64,000 nucleotides of DNA, taken from positions 2,240 through 66,239 of the forward strand of contig JABIAY010000060.1 in assembly GCA_018653085.1 (NCBI GenBank), in the 5' to 3' direction. The notes beneath the pieces are model-generated. The model made no database searches. It saw only the letters and a list, made by a program, of their open reading frames with translations, and was not told the DNA's origin. The position numbers and the translations under genes were made by a program. This DNA comes from Nitrospina sp. (lineage in GTDB: Bacteria > Nitrospinota > Nitrospinia > Nitrospinales > VA-1). Numbering within the stretch: position 1 is the first letter of the stretch; each line of letters starts with the position of its first letter. Of this stretch, positions 28,794 to 46,055 are shown one piece after another.

Positions 28794-29648
28794 TTACCCG
28801 GCCAGGATGGTGTTTTCCAGGTTGGCGCCCTTGGTAATCGCTTTTGCAATGTTGGCATCTACCAGATACGCATCTGAAAGGTTGGCGTTGGTAAAGCTTG
28901 TGCCATGCAAATTGGCTTCCAGGAGAAAGGCGTTTTGAAGGTTGGCTCCTTCCATGTTGGCGTAGGTCAGATCAGATCCCTCCATGTTGGCTTCTTCCAA
29001 AACGATTCCTGCGCATTGAGCGTCTTTCAAATCCACACCAATCAGGTTTGCGTTGGTCAAATTGACTTCTTTAAAGGTGCAGGAGTTAAGGTCTGCGTAT
29101 TTCAGTATGGAACCCTTTAAGTCTACTTCAGTCAATTTAGAAAAGCTCAAGTCGCATCCCCTCGCATTGGCTCCTCCCAGTCGGGATTTATTTATGATGG
29201 CCTGTTTCATGAAGGTGTACATCATCCGGGCGAATCCCATATTGCTGTTTTCTATAGTGGCGGAATAAAAACTGGCGTGGCCCAGGTTTGCACCCTGGAA
29301 GTCACATTCGTTTATGTTGGCTCGTGAAAAATCACAGTTGGTCAGGGTAGCATTTTTGAAATTACAGCCCACCATATTTGCGCCTTCAAAGTTGACCCCT
29401 TCAAGGTTAGCTCCTGTAAAATTCAGGTCCTTGATCTTTGCATTTTTCATGGATGACTTTTCCAGAGAAGCTTGGGAAAAATCAACTTCGCACAGTTCGG
29501 AGTCGTCTATAACCGTCTCAACCAGAGTTGCGTAAACAAAGCTGGCGCCATTGAGGCTTACCCCTTTCAGGTCAAAGCCACTGAAATCGCCCCCATCCTG
29601 CTTGGGCTCTTTCATGATTAATGAAATCATCTCATCAACGTTTGACAT
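28794..29648 (-). CDS. pentapeptide repeat protein
   Basis: Nearly the whole protein is A(N/D)(L/F)xx repeats. Confidence 0.92.
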   Translation of the reverse strand: MSNVDEMISLIMKEPKQDGGDFSGFDLKGVSLNGASFVYATLVETVIDDSELCEVDFSQASLEKSSMKNAKIKDLNFTGANLEGVNFEGANMVGCNFKNATLTNCDFSRANINECDFQGANLGHASFYSATIENSNMGFARMMYTFMKQAIINKSRLGGANARGCDLSFSKLTEVDLKGSILKYADLNSCTFKEVNLTNANLIGVDLKDAQCAGIVLEEANMEGSDLTYANMEGANLQNAFLLEANLHGTSFTNANLSDAYLVDANIAKAITKGANLENTILAG

Positions 29649-29654
29649 TTACTT

Positions 29655-30482
29655 TTATTCCCTCTGTTGAGATGGTGGCAGAAGTGCGTTCATGCTCCGC
29701 TGAATTTTTTGCGGATTTACCCTGTCATGAATTCCAATGATGCCAACCCGTATGGCCTTGAATAAAACGCCTTCCATATCCGTTCTGCTGGCCAACTTCG
29801 CCGCGACGGGAGTCAAAATGAGGTTGGCCAGCATGAGACCGTAAAATGTAGTGATCAACGCAGTGGCCAGGGCAGGGCCAATGGTTGCCGGATCGTCAAG
29901 ATGCATCAGCATTTGTACCAGACCAATTAATGTGCCGGCCATTCCAAATACAGGGGCCTGCACGGACATGAAGCGTAAAACCTTTACCCCGGAATTATGC
30001 CGGTCGAGCATGGAGTTTAGTTCTCTTTCCATAAGTTCGTGAATCTCTTTTGCGTTGTAACCATCCACAATCATGGCGATTCCATTTTTAAGGAACCGGT
30101 TGTCCACTTTGCTTTCTTCATTTTCCAGTTGTTTCATGCCACCGGAACGATATTTGGAAGCCAGCCTCATGATGTCATCGACATAATCTTCCGGCTCATA
30201 AATGCCAGGCTTGAAGGCGTTGTTAATAATCGGCACCATCCCGGATACTTTTTTGGAGGGAAATGCGATAAAAGATGTGGAAAGGGCTCCTCCAAGAACG
30301 ATCAAGGCACTGTTGATATTGATAAAAATCCCGGCGTCTCCACCGCGAATAATTGCTACGGTAATGAGAAATATACCTCCCAGAGCACCCAGCAGGGTAC
30401 CGGTATCCATTCCGGTATCCGCACGCTCCTCCTGAGCCAGGTCTGCGGCGGTACCTCGTATTTCTTGAGTTGCTGTGGCCAT
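29655..30482 (-). CDS. motA: MotA/PomA-family stator A subunit
   Basis: APVFGMAGTLIGLVQML, IGPALATALITTFYG, YRSGG...LE cytoplasmic loop. Confidence 0.9.
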   Translation of the reverse strand: MATATQEIRGTAADLAQEERADTGMDTGTLLGALGGIFLITVAIIRGGDAGIFININSALIVLGGALSTSFIAFPSKKVSGMVPIINNAFKPGIYEPEDYVDDIMRLASKYRSGGMKQLENEESKVDNRFLKNGIAMIVDGYNAKEIHELMERELNSMLDRHNSGVKVLRFMSVQAPVFGMAGTLIGLVQMLMHLDDPATIGPALATALITTFYGLMLANLILTPVAAKLASRTDMEGVLFKAIRVGIIGIHDRVNPQKIQRSMNALLPPSQQRE

Positions 30483-30514
30483 GAACCTTTAGGCAGTGAT
30501 GTTAAAATCTAATT

Positions 30515-32692
30515 TCAACTGGCGGCTTTTTCCGCATTAGTCGTGGCCCGTATCAATAATGAGCGCACGATATAATTATTCAGCCAAGGTACCTGTAACA
30601 CTTCTTTTCGGCCGCTGGGGATGTAAACCTTAAGAAAATCGGGCTTTTCAACCTTTTCAGGGCTCAGTTGGGGGCTCAGGTCGCTGATGCACCGGGTCAT
30701 ACAATTTAACCCTGCATAGGATTTGCAGAACAGCTCACCCCAGGAGGTCAAATAAATGGTTGTGATGCTCCGCGCTCGCTCAATTCGTTTATTGATAAAT
30801 TTTGTCAATTCATCGTTATTTTTGCAGTCCCTGATGTTCCCCATACTTATTTCGGGTGGCGGCGGATTGCCAAAGTCCACCAACATGAACAATTGAGTGA
30901 TTTTAGCCTCGTTCAACAGATCCTCATTAGACAATGCGGCGATGTTGACGGACTCGATGAAGCTTTTGAGTATTTGTAGCAATGTAGCCAGATCATTTTC
31001 CTTGATGGCTTGCCCCTCGGCTCTCAGCAAAACTTCGGTGTTTTCACTGTAGAGATGGTTGAAAACAGTAAACGCCAGGAGAAATGGAAGGGTTGCTGAT
31101 TTCCTGATGATATCGTCCTTGTCAATTTGCTCCAGGTAAGCTTGCGTCCTGCCTCGAATCAGGTACCACTCCGGTTTAGCATTTCTATCCTTTTGTTCCA
31201 AAAGGAAGGTCAATTCATTTTCAGCCGTTTTACCATCTACCAAAGCACCCAGGTTATCGACTTTATTGGGGGCGGCTCTGTAAAAACTGAAAAGTTTCCG
31301 ACCTAAAAGATGGGTGTCTTTCTCGGTGATCAAACTTTCACTGGGATCAAGGGTCTTGTTTTTTTCAGAAATATTTTTGTAGGAGGCCATCAAAATTTTA
31401 TTGATACGGTTTCCCAAATCCACCTTATGCATCATTTGCCAGCCGGAATACTGGTTCAGTTTTTCAATTTTATCCGAGCTCCAACCCCACTCCTTCAGCA
31501 TTTTGATCAGGGTGCTCTTTCTCCAGTTATCCGAGCCCTTTTCATACTCCTCGCCAGTAACCTGGGTACCCACCTTTAAATAGAATGCGTGTCTCAGTGC
31601 ATCGACTTCATCCTCAGATTTTGTTTCAGTAAAAAACTTCTGTACTCGCTCGAACATTCCCAGGTAGGGGTCAATATCCAGGTAGGGGACATCATTATAA
31701 TATTTATCTTTAATTTGATGGCATAGCAGGTTCGATTTGGTGTCTCCAAACATATATTCTTCAAGCACCCCCATTTTCATGAGTGTTTTAAAGGGGGATT
31801 TGAAGGATTTGATCAGAGCCCATATCGACCCACCAAAAAATTCTCCATCGGAGATATCATCTACATTGCCCATGTCGATGAATTCTTCTTTTTTGAGGAG
31901 AGTTTTCCCTGATTGGAGCTTTTCATATAGCTCGTAGTACCGGTCATCATCACAGTCCACCGGAGAAACCAGCCAGAAAGGAATTTTCCCAGTGACAATG
32001 ATCATGGTTCGATACATTTCTTCCTTCAGGAGTTTTGCCAAGGCGGACCCTGTGCTTTCACTGTCACTTTCACCAAAGATATTATTTTTGACTTCCTGGT
32101 AATCATTGATGAAAAAATGGGTTTCCAGAGTAAAATTGTCCCAGGTCCACGTCTCTATCAGGTTCAGTTTTTTCTGGAACAGCTTCATGCTTTCTTCAGT
32201 GAAATCCCTTTTGTCTATTAACAAAGTGTAGTCAAGATCGGACTTTTTGGTCTGGGCAATGGAACCCACACTGCCCATAAGCAGAGCAGTATGAATGACG
32301 GGTTTCAGTTCCGGGTTCCTGCGGAGGATTACGTCCGGGAATAGTTTTTCGGCGGCGACCTGGGCTTCTTTATCCAGAGTAAAATTATGGATGCCGCAGG
32401 GGGGATTGCCTTCAAAATAGCCCGGCAAGCCCTCCTGATGCACATGAAGCAGGCGCGGAATAACCAGGAAAATCAGGCGATCAATCTCAGAAAGTGTGAT
32501 CAGGTTTCGATCTATTTTAAACCGGTTGAACTGTAAATAATCCTGCCGGTTTGACAGGAGCATTTCTGCATCCGACTTGATGAGTGTCTGTTGGGCCTTC
32601 TCAATATTTTCTTGCGGGGGTTTTTGGGCAAGCTCTTCCGCGGCAAGAGATTTTTCCATTTGTTCGGTGATAGATTTTTCTACTGATCCCAT
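30515..32692 (-). CDS. cyaA: class I adenylate cyclase
   Basis: MGSVGSIAQ..KSDLD, ETHFF, GSA..KLLKEEMYRT, KS.KSPFK..MK, DPY and FYLK match class I AC catalytic motifs. Confidence 0.85.
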   Translation of the reverse strand: MGSVEKSITEQMEKSLAAEELAQKPPQENIEKAQQTLIKSDAEMLLSNRQDYLQFNRFKIDRNLITLSEIDRLIFLVIPRLLHVHQEGLPGYFEGNPPCGIHNFTLDKEAQVAAEKLFPDVILRRNPELKPVIHTALLMGSVGSIAQTKKSDLDYTLLIDKRDFTEESMKLFQKKLNLIETWTWDNFTLETHFFINDYQEVKNNIFGESDSESTGSALAKLLKEEMYRTMIIVTGKIPFWLVSPVDCDDDRYYELYEKLQSGKTLLKKEEFIDMGNVDDISDGEFFGGSIWALIKSFKSPFKTLMKMGVLEEYMFGDTKSNLLCHQIKDKYYNDVPYLDIDPYLGMFERVQKFFTETKSEDEVDALRHAFYLKVGTQVTGEEYEKGSDNWRKSTLIKMLKEWGWSSDKIEKLNQYSGWQMMHKVDLGNRINKILMASYKNISEKNKTLDPSESLITEKDTHLLGRKLFSFYRAAPNKVDNLGALVDGKTAENELTFLLEQKDRNAKPEWYLIRGRTQAYLEQIDKDDIIRKSATLPFLLAFTVFNHLYSENTEVLLRAEGQAIKENDLATLLQILKSFIESVNIAALSNEDLLNEAKITQLFMLVDFGNPPPPEISMGNIRDCKNNDELTKFINKRIERARSITTIYLTSWGELFCKSYAGLNCMTRCISDLSPQLSPEKVEKPDFLKVYIPSGRKEVLQVPWLNNYIVRSLLIRATTNAEKAAS

Positions 32693-32797
32693 AATAATGA
32701 TGTTATCGCTAGGTTTATGGCTTATTGGTAATTTTACCCTAAAACCAGTTAAAAAACTTTCTCAATAGTATAGGAGCCTTCCAGTAGCTTACGAGGC

Positions 32798-34381
32798 CTA
32801 TTTTTCCGGTTGTTTTGAGCTCGGGCCAGGAGTATCTGGGGCTCCAGGTTTTTTCTCGCCTTCGGTTTTTCCCTTTGTCTTTTGGGCTTCATCTTTAGCG
32901 ACTTCAATCGCTTTCAATATTTTAATTTCCACCCGTCGGTTAGCGGCGCGGTTGTCATCATTGGTGTTGGCTTTAAGCGGACGGAACTCCCCATAACCTG
33001 TTACGACCATTCGTTCAGGCGGAAACCGCATTTTTTCTATAATAAACCGGGCCACCTTTGAAGCTCTGGCGGCTGAAAGTTCCCAGTTGGAAGGAAACTT
33101 GGTGCTCTTCATCGGAACGTTATCGGTGTGACCATCAATAAGCACCTGCTTGACACCTTCTTTCATATCTTCCTGGATGGTGGAAATAATCAGGTCTTCC
33201 GCACCCTCACTGAAGAAAGCATCCCCAGGAGCGAAAAGGTCTGAGGTTGGCAGGAGATGCAGGATCGTTCTCGTATCACTGCGGGAAAGGCTTTCCGCGT
33301 CAACATTGTCTTTAACCAATAGCCGTACCCGTTCCAGCATTTTCATTTCGGCTTTGCTCAAGCGAACATTGACGCTTTCAATACGCATTCTTTTTGACTG
33401 GAACGAGGAAAGGGCCTCGGCAAACTTATTTTCGTCCAGTTTGGAAACGCTGTACATCAAAACGAATACCACCAAAATAAGTGTGATCATATCGGAATAA
33501 GTGATGAGAAAGCCTTCCAGGCCACCAGAGAACTCCGATGCCGCCGCCGCACGGCCTTCAACCATCTGTTGACCGCCTTCACCACCACCACCCTTGGAGC
33601 CACGCCCTTTTTCCTCTTCAAGCAGGACGATTTTCATATCCATTTCGGCATTGTCTTCTTTGAGCATTTCCAAATCAACCATCATCCTGCGGCGCTCTTT
33701 TTCCAGATCTTCCACGTCCTCTTTCAATTCCTGGATGATTTCAGAGGGGAGCATGCCGTCTTCCCCTGCATCCATGCCACCGTAAAGCATATCTTCGTAT
33801 TTTTTTATGAGTTCGTCCTTTTCCTTGACAATATCCTCTGTTACGGCTCCCGATGACATGGAGGTCTTTTTAGCCTTTGACAAATCCGCCTTAAGATCCT
33901 CAATTTTATTCTTTAAGTTGTCAGTAGTTCCGGTGTCCTGGCGGAGGCGCTTCAACTCTCTCATCAGCACACCCCGTTCCCGCTCGAATTTTTTATTAGC
34001 CCCTTTTTCTCTCTCAATCCGTTCCCGAAGAGCATCGACCTTGGTGGCAAGCTTGGCCATTTTCTCCTTCATTTTTTCGTCCATCTGAGCCTCAATGCGC
34101 TTGTTTATCTCGGCCTCTTCTTCCTCTTTCTCTTTTTTGCCCGCTTCAACTCCAGCATGTTTTGAAAGACGGGCCGCCTCGACCAGGCTTTTTTGTTCGG
34201 CAACCTCCTCTTCTGCAGTCTTGATGCCCGCTTTAAGCTTTTTGACCTCAGTTTGGTTAAAGCTGATCAGGTCTTTGATTTTTTTTGTTACCTTCCCCTT
34301 TTCTTCGTTGGATTTGCGCAACTCGACTGTCTTTATTTTGAGTTGCTCCTTAACTAATTGTAGGGATTCCATATTTTTCAT
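32798..34381 (-). CDS. motB: MotB/PomB-family stator B subunit with a long N-terminal coiled coil
   Basis: FLITYSDMITL TM with the conserved Asp; OmpA-like domain GHTDNVP, NWELSAARA, NRRVEI; ~290 aa K/E-rich N-terminus. Confidence 0.88.
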   Translation of the reverse strand: MKNMESLQLVKEQLKIKTVELRKSNEEKGKVTKKIKDLISFNQTEVKKLKAGIKTAEEEVAEQKSLVEAARLSKHAGVEAGKKEKEEEEAEINKRIEAQMDEKMKEKMAKLATKVDALRERIEREKGANKKFERERGVLMRELKRLRQDTGTTDNLKNKIEDLKADLSKAKKTSMSSGAVTEDIVKEKDELIKKYEDMLYGGMDAGEDGMLPSEIIQELKEDVEDLEKERRRMMVDLEMLKEDNAEMDMKIVLLEEEKGRGSKGGGGEGGQQMVEGRAAAASEFSGGLEGFLITYSDMITLILVVFVLMYSVSKLDENKFAEALSSFQSKRMRIESVNVRLSKAEMKMLERVRLLVKDNVDAESLSRSDTRTILHLLPTSDLFAPGDAFFSEGAEDLIISTIQEDMKEGVKQVLIDGHTDNVPMKSTKFPSNWELSAARASKVARFIIEKMRFPPERMVVTGYGEFRPLKANTNDDNRAANRRVEIKILKAIEVAKDEAQKTKGKTEGEKKPGAPDTPGPSSKQPEK

Positions 34382-34529
34382 AAACTAGCCTCTTGGTTCT
34401 CCTGCATATCGGCAAAAAAGATGGAAAAGGTTATATAATAACAAGAATTTAAGGGCACTACGCCGGGTTAAGGTTGTGCTCCTACAAGTCAATTTTATTG
34501 AATGATATCACGCCTTGTCAATTGCCCAT

Positions 34530-41932: not shown

Positions 41933-44900
41933 ATGCCTGGTATAAAAAAAACAGCCTGCATTTATCGTAGTTTCTTCTCCTCTATTGTCGCACTGTTTTT
42001 TCTTTTCCTATTGAGCCCAAGTGTTTTTGCCGCTGACCTGACGGTTTCTACTGCATTGACCGCAACGCAAAACTTCTCTACTTTGGGTGATGACCTGACC
42101 GTAACAGCTGCGGGTTCGATCATTCCTTCCACGCCTGCCACACCTGGGGCCGCTACCAATCCTGCGACCGGTACCGCCAACAACGGAGACGCCGTCGATT
42201 TTAGCGGTGCGGCAACCAACGGAACGATAACTTCAGCCGGAACTATTACTGGGGGTGCCGGGGGTGCCGGTGGCGATGACTCCGATACCGGAGGCGTTAC
42301 TTCAAACGCTACGACAGGTGGTGCCGGTGCCGCAGGTGCCTTGGGAATCGATTTTAATGTGGGGAATACCATAACCATAACCGCTGGTACCGTGACAGGG
42401 GGTGCCGGTGGCGCAGGGGGAACAGGTGAGGGGCCTACCAATGCGGCTGGAGGAACGGGTGGTGCAGGGGCATCAGGTGGAACTGGAATAGATACAACGG
42501 GGGCGGGCGGGGTGACAATTGATATAAACGGCGGCGCAGTTGCCGGTGGCGCAGGTGGCAATGGCGGTACCGGTGGCACGACTACAAGTGCTACTGCCAA
42601 TGGAGGTACAGGCGGTGCGGGGAGTACAGGTGCCACGGGTCTTTTAACGGCTTCCGGTGATACCGTGACAGTTTCCAGTGGAGCAAATATTACCGGTGGC
42701 GCCGGGGGCTCGGGAGGTACTGGTGGTGGTGGTTCTACAACCGGTAACGGCGGTGCCGGGGGAAACGGGGCCACTGCGGGTACAGGTGCGCAATTAATTG
42801 GTAGTACAACCATGACGGTATCGGGAACGATAACAGGCGGAGCAGGTGGAAGCGGAGGAACGGGGGGAGTGAGTAATAACAACAACGCTTCCGTAGGGGG
42901 TGCGGGTGGGAGCGGTGGAACCGGCAATATTGGTATACAAGCTTTGACCACAACGGGAGGAACGATCACGGTCAAATCGGGGGGAGAAGTCAAAGGTGGC
43001 GCTGGGGGCGCGGGAGGTGCAGGGGGCGCGGCCAATGCCACGGATGGGGACGGTGGAGCTGGCGGTAATGGAGGCGAAGGTGGTAGGGGTATTGTAGCCT
43101 CTGTGGCGACAACGATCAATGTTGAGGCCGGCGGCAAGGTTACAGGGGGCGCTGGCGGGGCGAATGGTGCCGATGGAGCAGAAGGCGCCAGCTCAAATGC
43201 CGATACCAGCCAGGCCAGCGCTGCTTCTGGTGCATCTGGAATTCAGGAAAGCTCCTCGAGTGGCACAACTACAATAACCAATGCTGGGACGATCACTGGT
43301 GGCGCGGGCGGCTCAGGACTTGATGCAAACCAGACCGACCAACTTGGTGGACAGGGCAATTCAAGTGGCAACGGTCTAGGTATTGTTATTACTGGATCAG
43401 CTAATAGAACTGTTACCAATACCGGTTCTATTATAGGCGGTGCTGGCGGCAATGATGGGGCCGCCAATGGCACCGCTGATGCGTCTTCTCAAGTAGCGGG
43501 GCAAGGATCTACGGGTGTCAACTTTGCTAGTACTCTTACATTAAATAATAATACGAGTGGTTCTATAACTGGTGGTGCGGGTGGCACGGGTATGACCGGT
43601 GGCACAGGCAATGCTTCCGGAAAAGGAGGAATTGGTGGAGCGGGTGTTTCTGGAACAAATAATGGCACTTTTAACAACACGGGTGGAACCATCACGGGTG
43701 GCGTGGGAGGCACAGGTGGTTTGGGGAATGCTACGGCAAGTACTGATACTGGTGGTGCCGGGGGGGGCGGGCGGTATAGGAGCAAGTTTTAGCTTCGGTA
43801 CAGTTAGCATTGATAATACCGGTGGAACGATCACGGGTGGCACTGGGGGTACGGGGGGGGCGGCGCAAAACGCATCTGCCAATGGTGGCGCAGGAGGTAC
43901 AGGAGGTGTTGGTTTAGAATACGATAATACCACGACATTGACCAATGCCAATGTAATAGAAGGTGGCGCAGGAGGCACAGGTGGGGCCGGGGGTGCAAGT
44001 GGTACGGGTGGGAATGGGGGTGCCGGAGGGGTGGCGGTGAACATCACTGCCGCCACGACTTTCACCAACAACGGCACTGTCACCGCCGGTTCCGGTGGTT
44101 CAGCAGGCAGTGGTGGTACGTCAGGTTCTGCAGGTTCTTCGGGCAATGCCATCACCGGTGATAACAACGCTATCACTATTACCAATACCGGCAGCATCAC
44201 CGGAAATATCTCAATGGGGACGGCTGTTGATACCTTTAATATGAACGGCGGTACCATCACCGGAAATATTGACCTGGGTACCGGCGCTAATGTTGCTTCC
44301 GCAACCAAAGGAACCATCAACGGAATATTCGATATTGGTGCCGCGACAGCAGACGCTACCATTAATCCTTCGTCAGGAAATACAGTCAGCTTTCTAAACT
44401 CGGGTGCGACCGCTTTGGAGTCGACCGGCCTGGACTTTGCCTTGAGTGGTGCAGGCACCGTTGTCATCAACGGCAACGTTGTGGATACTTCAGCTTCCGC
44501 CACTGACCTGGATCAAACAGCCGGAACATTGGAGTTTTCCGGCAACTCGGCGATCGATGGTGCCCTCTTATCATCGGGAGCTTCAACCATTGTGGATCTT
44601 TCCACTAATGATGTCACCGTTGCCGCCGCATCGACACTTGGAACCTCCGGTTCAACACTCAAGGTAACTATCGATAATACGGCAGGCAGCAGTGGCTCCC
44701 TGGCTACCTCAGCGGCGGTGGCGATCACGGTTAATGATTCACTGATAATATCCCCGACAGTAGGAAATGTGATCGCGGGTGAAGCGATAACTATCATCGA
44801 TGGGGCTGCCGGTGGCGGCACGCTCAGTATCACGACCCTGGCCACCTTGCAGAGCAACCTGTCTGTTTCGGGTGCAAGCATCCGTCATGACAACTTCACT

Positions 44901-46055
44901 CTGGCAAACACCGGTCAGACTTTAACAATCACTGCGGGCCTGGCGTCATTGAGTCTTTCCGGTTCTGCGGGTGGGGTCAATGACGTGGCCGATACAGCCT
45001 TTGCCAGTGACAGCACTCTTTTAAATGCATTGAACGCCGTTTCATCATCGGACGGACTCAACGATGCACTGGAATCTCTGGCCCCCGTGGTTAACGGTGG
45101 CGCGATAGTGGGCTCTGTGTCTGCTGGAACTGCTTCCAGGAAAGTGGTTCAAACACGTATGGCAAATCTTCGCATCGGGATCTCTGCCGGGCAGGGACTT
45201 GCCAGTGGTGATGAGTATGAGGGAGAAAGAAATTTCTGGACGCAGGGTTTCGGCACCTTTGCCGATCAGAGGGGTCGTGATGGCTTTGATGGTTTTGATG
45301 CCGTCACCGGTGGTTTCGCGTTGGGTGCGGACAAACCTGTTTCTAAAAACCTGACGGGAGGTCTGGCCTTCAGCTATGCTTTCACCAATGTAAACTCAGA
45401 CCGTTCTGCCAATCGAACATTGATCAACAGTTTTCAGACAACAGGATATGGCAGCTACGAGTTCGGTTCCTATTTTCTGGAAAGCATGGTTTCACTGAGC
45501 TACACCACTTATGAGGGATTGCGAAGCATCAGTGTGGGTAGCGTTGAACGACGAGCCAGAGCCGACTATGACGGTGCACAAGGTTCCATCAAGGCAGGCC
45601 TTGGTCGCGAATTCAGATTTGATGACGGTGTAGAGATAACACCCAGCATATCGTTGCAGTACAACCACGTTTATATAGACAGCTACACGGAAAGCGGAGC
45701 CGATGCATCGAATCTGGATGTTGGCAGTCAGAACTACGACAGTCTTTATTTAACCTTGAATAGCGAATTCAGCCGTACTTACGAAATAGACGCGGGAACT
45801 TTGGCTCCTGAGATCCATATTGGATATATGTACGAGGCTTTGGATGAAAAGGTTTCCACAACATCTACCTTTACTGGCGGTGGCGGGTCTTTCAAGACCA
45901 GCGGGTTTGACCCGGCCAACCACAGTTTGCTTGCCGGAGCCGGTTTAACTTTTGCCAGCCTGGACAATTTCGATCTGAAAGCCACGTATGATATGGAGAT
46001 GAAAGACGATTATACCAGCCACTCGGCTCTGCTTCGCGGAGAATGGAAGTTTTAA
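41933..46055 (+). pseudogene. Gly-rich autotransporter frameshifted at a G8 tract (43760-43767)
   Basis: ORF 41933-43792 (signal peptide plus GGXGG passenger) and ORF ending at 46055 (autotransporter barrel, ..GEWKF) join into 1373 aa if one G is removed. Confidence 0.85.

Follow-up and report, generated by a model that had tools for sequence, protein, structure and literature searches.

A four-gene cluster was analysed in a 64,000-nucleotide window of a Nitrospina sp. genome (assembly GCA_018653085.1, contig JABIAY010000060.1, positions 2,240 to 66,239; coordinates below are those of the window). In its order on the minus strand the cluster encodes MotB, a class I adenylate cyclase (cya), MotA and a pentapeptide-repeat protein (PRP), and it is likely a late-flagellar operon of the sigma28 type, with a predicted promoter. 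The reading preferred here, to which slightly less than an even chance is given, is that this operon co-expresses an extra flagellar stator, a likely active cyclase and its likely PRP partner, with the stator tuning the formation of cyclic AMP (cAMP) by motor state. A stronger form of it is proposed tentatively, in which the stator would control the class I cyclase directly, a cyclase-PRP complex docking on its cytoplasmic side and turning motor engagement or load into cAMP.

Organisation, conservation and genomic site of the cluster

The genes are motB (32798-34381; 527 aa), a short form of cya (30515-32692; 725 aa), a PomA/MotP-like motA (29655-30482; 275 aa) and PRP (28794-29648; 284 aa), all on the minus strand and separated by 105, 32 and 6 bp. 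Coordinates and Pfam matches agreed with the four same-strand genes of the preliminary description. All four proteins exceeded the Pfam cut-offs: MotB with MotB_plug (residues 289-329) and an OmpA-type peptidoglycan-binding domain (398-482), the cyclase with Adenyl_cycl_N and Adenylate_cycl, MotA with MotA_ExbB and PRP with Pentapeptide. Among 15 open reading frames of the window analysed with Pfam and 38 analysed with NCBIfam (1e-40), several of which were left without a name, none was identified as a further flagellar gene.

Gene order was compared across 73 Nitrospinales loci from representative genomes, with locus classes tallied by hand. The synteny that the preliminary description had proposed to survey proved to be conserved: the order motB-cya-motA-PRP was complete in 45 loci and agreed as far as the contig extended in another 10. 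In 16 loci cya was followed directly by PRP, 13 of them carrying no stator trace, one a motB remnant and two another stator type upstream. The remaining two comprised an internally deleted motB and a 610-bp fragment. PRP came next after cya in all 66 loci with downstream DNA. In four families the cyclase gene separates the normally adjacent motA/motB pair, and in the same number of families the cluster lies between ampG, its divergent neighbour, and an FGE-family gene; the site is fixed in the core genome and is no defence island.

Among 80 PomA-like motA loci from metagenomes, three had cyclase and PRP, each being a copy of the cluster, one had two long MotBs, and 76 had neither a cyclase nor a long-tailed MotB. 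The grouping of the four genes thus exceeds chance. Class I cyclases of other orders (~30% identical) adjoined neither a stator nor a PRP in 12 stretches. PilZ-domain genes directly adjoin class I cyclases in another order of the class (L155:6023-6943, L157:3685-5350), a further hint that this type of enzyme is linked to motility.

The site bears on the earlier suggestion that the module might serve defence, as an anti-phage system in which the motor would sense infection and the cyclase would make an immune nucleotide, or some product other than cAMP. Such a role is in keeping with a cyclase model that resembles nucleotidyltransferases generally and with weak matches of MotB to ZorB profiles, MotB being the one protein matched by PADLOC, which left MotA (275 aa), cyclase and PRP unmatched. 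There was no match to ZorA, ZorC or ZorD, and the distribution is not the patchy, defence-island one of Zorya: the core site is constant in four families, and cya and PRP occur in 54 of 64 Nitrospinales genomes of at least 85% completeness. The E. coli CyaA motif positions are also invariant, and canonical receptors for cyclic nucleotides (cNMPs) are many (see below). A defence role was rejected on the constant core site and the missing ZorA, ZorC and ZorD; a Zorya-like role is unlikely, and the anti-phage alternative is considered very improbable.

A flagellar-type stator

By its residues and domains the cluster stator is of the flagellar type. PomA was the best relative of cluster MotA among solved structures (E 2e-49). 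At the torque interface, R112 was kept in 20 of 20 sequences and E120 in 19 of 20; they align with PomA R88 and E96, and the corresponding E. coli residues, R90 and E98, contact FliG (PMC12505986). In the ion path, MotA T184 and T212 were kept in 20/20 sequences, and the transmembrane aspartate of MotB, D297, was invariant (35/35). The two threonines suggest sodium as the coupling ion without proving it; residues of this type line the PomAB ion path and are also found in a proton stator (PMC11725901).

MotB contains one hydrophobic segment (about 287-317) behind a charged tail of 283 aa, which is therefore placed in the cytoplasm. The tail is 48% charged or Gln with a 3.5-residue periodicity, and was predicted by AlphaFold as long helices, giving it a coiled-coil-like character. 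Instead of the usual adjacent A-then-B order and short cytoplasmic end of the B subunit, the cluster thus has B-cyclase-A and a 283-aa tail.

The host genome encodes FliG, FlhA, seven flagellin-domain matches and two further stator pairs; the cluster pair is not its only stator, a question that the preliminary description had raised. The only fliG match of the host genome (G000:C25:4259-5266) is isolated from flagellar operons, and that of G026 lies within fliF-fliG-fliH-fliI. G026 is a 97% complete relative in which the cluster operon is divided between two contig ends. Its flagellar genes are intact (fliF, fliG, flhA and three flagellins), both other stator sites are cleanly empty, and one MotA and one MotB-plug match were found. 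The cluster pair is therefore the only candidate torque generator of the putatively motile G026.

An alternative is that the pair works outside the flagellum, as an ion-driven sensor motor anchored to the wall that would inform the cyclase of ion-motive force or envelope state, ZorAB-like but physiological. The long cytoplasmic tail, the divergent ampG neighbour, the two other stator pairs available to drive the flagellum and the receiver-MotB fusions of a sister clade (see below) would fit such a motor. It is nevertheless unlikely, because the rotor-contact residues are better preserved in cluster MotA than in a PilZ-linked paralogue, the pair is the sole stator of the flagellated G026, the predicted promoter is sigma28-like, and the cluster is lost alongside the flagellum. 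The repurposed motor of the preliminary description, whether non-flagellar, Zorya-like or defensive, is accordingly not supported.

Predicted promoter and transcription

A sigma28 (FliA)-like promoter was predicted at 34407-34433 (minus strand), 25 nt upstream of the motB start, with the sequence TAAC-N17-CCGATA, which relatives keep immediately upstream of motB. The E. coli sigma28 consensus is TAAAGTTT-n11-GCCGATAA, and motAB/cheAW are among its promoters (PMC2859248); the predicted site departs from it in the -35 box and the spacing. In the host genome, TAAN-N16/17-CCGATA was found upstream of three of the seven flagellin-like genes, of fliD and of flgM, there were 34 intergenic sites vs 3-10 in 20 shuffles, and the flhA cluster carries a FliA-like sigma factor. 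The predicted FliA regulon of the host also includes two receiver proteins, an Lcl-domain protein, a SprA-related protein and a radical SAM enzyme.

A relaxed pattern, chosen after inspection of the data and with 8 of its 33 sites dependent on the relaxed letters, was present in 33 of 44 motB-first loci; on the reverse strand it occurred in 1 of 44, and among cya-first loci in 2 of 12. Of these 33 sites, 32 lay 24-39 nt upstream of the aligned start. The sigma28-like site was retained at three recent stator-loss or remnant loci (L031, L069, L303) and was missing from nearly all loci of two old stator-less lineages.

A sigma70-like promoter was also predicted at 34492-34521 (minus strand; TTGACA-18-TAAAAT, 11/12 matches). 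It is the best site of the region, and a similar element occurs in 20 of 44 motB-first loci. Counts from a generic scan for sigma70 sites and terminators were at chance level (8 sigma70 sites in the region vs 8.2 expected). Seawater RNA contigs cover the cluster genes and span the motB-cya junction in three runs and the cya-motA junction in one; being assembled, they are compatible with more than one transcript and carry no start or strand. Among the matches listed, no RNA piece bridged the motA-PRP junction by at least 31 nt.

The cyclase, its likely partner and the cAMP context

The Pfam scores of the cyclase were 158 and 260 bits against a cut-off of 27, and it was 26% identical to E. coli CyaA over ~640 aa. 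Ten CyaA motif positions, which we take to be catalytic, were invariant in 65/65 sequences (S103, S113, D114, D116, E185, W200, K260, K264, D300 and K332); T189 was kept in 62 of 65, and W118 and H609 were not kept. On these residues the cluster cyclase is likely catalytically active. The best score against the NCBIfam equivalog for class I cyclases was 443 bits, short of the cut-off of 802. CyaA residues from about 676 to 848, the last ~170, are missing from the cluster enzyme. That this short C-terminus might be a cluster-specific trait was rejected, since in other orders the unlinked class I cyclases have a similarly short form (657-722 aa). The predicted model (mean predicted local distance difference test score 74) has a nucleotidyltransferase fold, for which Foldseek returned general nucleotidyltransferases only; the C-terminal domain gave no Foldseek match, and a sequence search of solved structures returned no class I cyclase.

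The proposal that PRP is a partner of the module was upheld: it is a true partner gene, with its orthologue in the identical 54 of 64 genomes as cya and, as given above, always next to it. Its length is near-constant (about 283 aa). In its C-terminal half the outward residues on two faces are conserved at 0.90 and 0.88 vs 0.51-0.69 elsewhere, and this patch is retained in most stator-less lineages. As the constant companion of the cyclase, PRP likely binds it; neither protein has a membrane segment. Against profiles of the gyrase-protecting Qnr/MfpA families PRP scored 58-68 bits, below their cut-offs of 240-490.

The class I adenylate cyclase of E. coli is controlled by EIIA-Glc of the phosphotransferase system (PTS). 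EIIA-Glc (PF00358) was found in none of five genomes tested, the host included. To our knowledge, little has been established about the regulation of class I cyclases outside enterobacteria; since, in addition, no solved class I cyclase was matched, control by a PRP partner and a stator would be a new form of regulation.

The host genome has 32 cNMP-binding domains and its relatives up to 41. Many of the host proteins are small and stand-alone with a canonical binding motif. Tandem arrays of cNMP-binding proteins of 120-145 aa with no output domain were observed at G000:C11:63057-64744, C15:52106-53766 and C26:3044-5493. Class III cyclases were found in 47 of the 64 genomes, with two in the host, so the cluster cyclase as an invariable sole source of cAMP was rejected; no class III cyclase was found in nine of the cya-bearing genomes.

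Loss of the cluster with the flagellum

Ten of the 64 genomes are missing cya and PRP, one of them (G063) through an assembly gap. The other nine, from four genera, lacked any MotB match; seven of them also lacked a flagellin match and two had a single weak one; flhA is broken in G020 and absent from G014 and G067. In eight of the nine the cluster flanks are joined on one contig. A flagellin match was present in 53 of the 54 cya-bearing genomes. The nine cya-less genomes contain 0-5 cNMP-binding domains vs 3-41 (median 13, hand count) in cya-bearing ones. The cluster is thus lost together with flagellar genes, with streamlining as a confounder and with kin among the genomes that are not independent.

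Possible coupling of stator and cyclase

In the mechanism proposed, FliA would turn on the operon upon completion of the flagellum. A MotA5B2 unit would join the motor by docking on the flagellar rotor, and cyclase and PRP would form a complex producing cAMP. Stator engagement, load or release would then alter cyclase activity through the C-terminal domain of the enzyme, by way of either the cytoplasmic face of MotA or the MotB tail, and the many small cNMP-binding proteins would read the cAMP. The link between stator and cyclase would be modulatory, because cya and PRP work on without the stator in several lineages.

Lineage-specific changes in the cyclase were counted after three recent stator losses and compared with sister lineages. 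For the C-terminal domain (441 onward) the counts were 34:5, 37:7 and 58:10; for neighbouring genes at the same losses they were 34:31, 38:50 and 113:43, near parity in two of three, and the catalytic part of the cyclase was near parity in the first two. The ratios of C- to N-terminal branch length were 6.3, 5.1 and 3.4; the 74 stator-bearing branches had a median ratio of 1.2 and reached 4.3 at most. This rate signal is suggestive only of stator-cyclase coupling.

Several observations weigh against the preferred reading. The cyclase tree shows at least five independent losses or replacements of the stator pair (16/65 rows), with cya and PRP retained. In the two old stator-less lineages there was no C-terminal acceleration (ratios 0.7-1.45), and over all branches of the tree the acceleration was not significant (p=0.13). 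The extra changes fell largely outside conserved sites with no clear common patch; a common set of cyclase or PRP residues changing upon stator loss was searched for and none was convincing. A stator with no cyclase, motA-motB-PilZ, has a MotB tail homologous to that of the cluster, at E 1e-28 to 1e-42 in five (the comparison left out 2 of 12 tails in which the script found no transmembrane motif), and the tail as a cyclase-specific feature was rejected for this reason. No sigma28 pattern was found in 11 of the 44 motB-first loci. One genome, G023, retains cya and PRP without a flagellin match, FlhA and FliG being retained. Class III cyclases are absent from eight of the nine cya-less genomes; since these genomes have lost class III cyclases and most cNMP domains as well, streamlining confounds the link to flagella.

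Much of this would be expected if transcription alone were shared. On that account a sigma28 stator operon would raise cAMP during flagellar build with no contact between stator and cyclase, and the stator would be one of three torque generators. The sigma28-like site by itself would explain the grouping, and the repeated stator losses, the tail on the cyclase-free paralogue, the lack of a tree-wide rate effect and G075, which has lost motB and kept motA, all fit. The account is the main rival, a serious possibility that falls short of being probable. Three things sit poorly with it. The C-terminal domain, not the catalytic part, accelerates in three separate recent losses, of which those checked (L031) retain the sigma28 site. 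A gene kept between motB and motA in four families would be an odd product of co-regulation alone, and EIIA-Glc, the canonical regulator, was not found in the five genomes.

The stator-to-cAMP link of the preliminary description is thus still plausible in its core. It is weakened by the persistence of cya and PRP in at least five stator-less lineages and by the tail on the cyclase-free paralogue, so that the coupling preferred here would be modulatory at most.

Other long-tailed stators of the order

The motA-motB-PilZ stator, a second long-tailed type (G000:C55:243203-245886; L184-L189, L192, L204, L213), is widespread in the order. Its MotA was without the rotor-contact Glu in 10 of 10 aligned sequences; it may therefore be a brake or low-torque stator controlled by cyclic di-GMP (c-di-GMP).

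In G072 (C188; L190:1961-3745) a MotB carries an N-terminal response-regulator receiver domain ahead of the coiled coil, convergent with a MotA of the sister clade. A broken copy of this receiver-MotB was observed at L191:1162-2918, and 14 related proteins were found. The receiver-fused MotB is possibly a phosphorylation-controlled stator, and the receiver domain in the MotA sister clade shows that MotB cytoplasmic ends can carry signalling modules.

A fourth type of stator, in which motA is preceded by a tandem pair of motB genes for long-tailed proteins, was found at L032:9995-14253 (G018), L173:10534-12526 (G002) and L272. It lies upstream of cya in G018, replacing the usual pair, and adjoins fliG in G002; it possibly forms a MotB heterodimer. 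G018 also has an E. coli-type motA with a MotB of 635 aa (L307:4352-7438; C63), the long charged tail of which is not detectably related to that of the cluster. Judged by these sequences, long MotB tails may have arisen more than once.

Other features of the window

A Gly/Thr-rich repeat protein with an autotransporter-like C-terminus is encoded at 41933-46055 (plus strand), apparently in two overlapping frames near 43600-43790. A frameshift, phase variation or an assembly error are options for the split.

Significance and comparison with known systems

It has long been asked how second-messenger enzymes are informed of load or surface contact by the flagellar motor. MotC-SadC, the known direct case of a stator acting on a cyclase, concerns c-di-GMP, and a stator and an adenylate cyclase in one operon make a compact system, testable in E. 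coli or Vibrio. If true, the stronger form of the preferred reading, with direct control by the stator, would give cAMP a mechanosensing input and class I cyclases a regulator outside the PTS. The cluster would then belong to a family of long-tailed stators with signalling roles in Nitrospinales, next to the PilZ-linked and receiver-fused types, and would give a first handle on motility decisions in these major marine nitrite oxidisers. A literature search, outside which most subscription journals lay, found no published description of the cluster. The main text of PMC12505986 contains neither 'Nitrospin' nor 'cyclase'; its supplements, which lay outside the search, may list these stators.

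With Zorya ZorAB the cluster shares a 5:2-type motor, a long cytoplasmic tail and adjoining genes for soluble partners. In Zorya the rotating A subunit carries the tail and ZorB is without a plug (PMC11946911), whereas in the cluster it is the anchored B subunit that has the tail, and the plug is present.

PomAB and MotPS (FIT, TGI4 group of PMC12505986) have the same rotor-contact Arg and Glu, ion-path Thr and Asp, plug and OmpA domain. The cluster differs from them in having motB ahead of motA, the cyclase between the two and the 283-aa MotB tail. The predicted promoter is likened to that of E. coli motAB/cheAW, which is sigma28-dependent (PMC2859248). Compared with E. coli CyaA, the cluster cyclase is shorter, has PRP as a constant partner gene and is accompanied by no EIIA-Glc in the genomes tested.

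In the FlhF-FimV-cAMP surface sensing of Pseudomonas aeruginosa, flagellar tethering involves cAMP and MotAB (PMC6855561). That article proposes the stator as a target of cAMP, whereas the reading preferred here would make the stator its controller. A precedent is P. aeruginosa MotC, which binds and stimulates the diguanylate cyclase SadC (10.1101/483339): a stator acts there on a second-messenger cyclase, as is proposed for the cluster. SadC makes c-di-GMP and is bound through membrane helices, whereas the cluster would rely on a soluble class I adenylate cyclase encoded within the stator operon itself.

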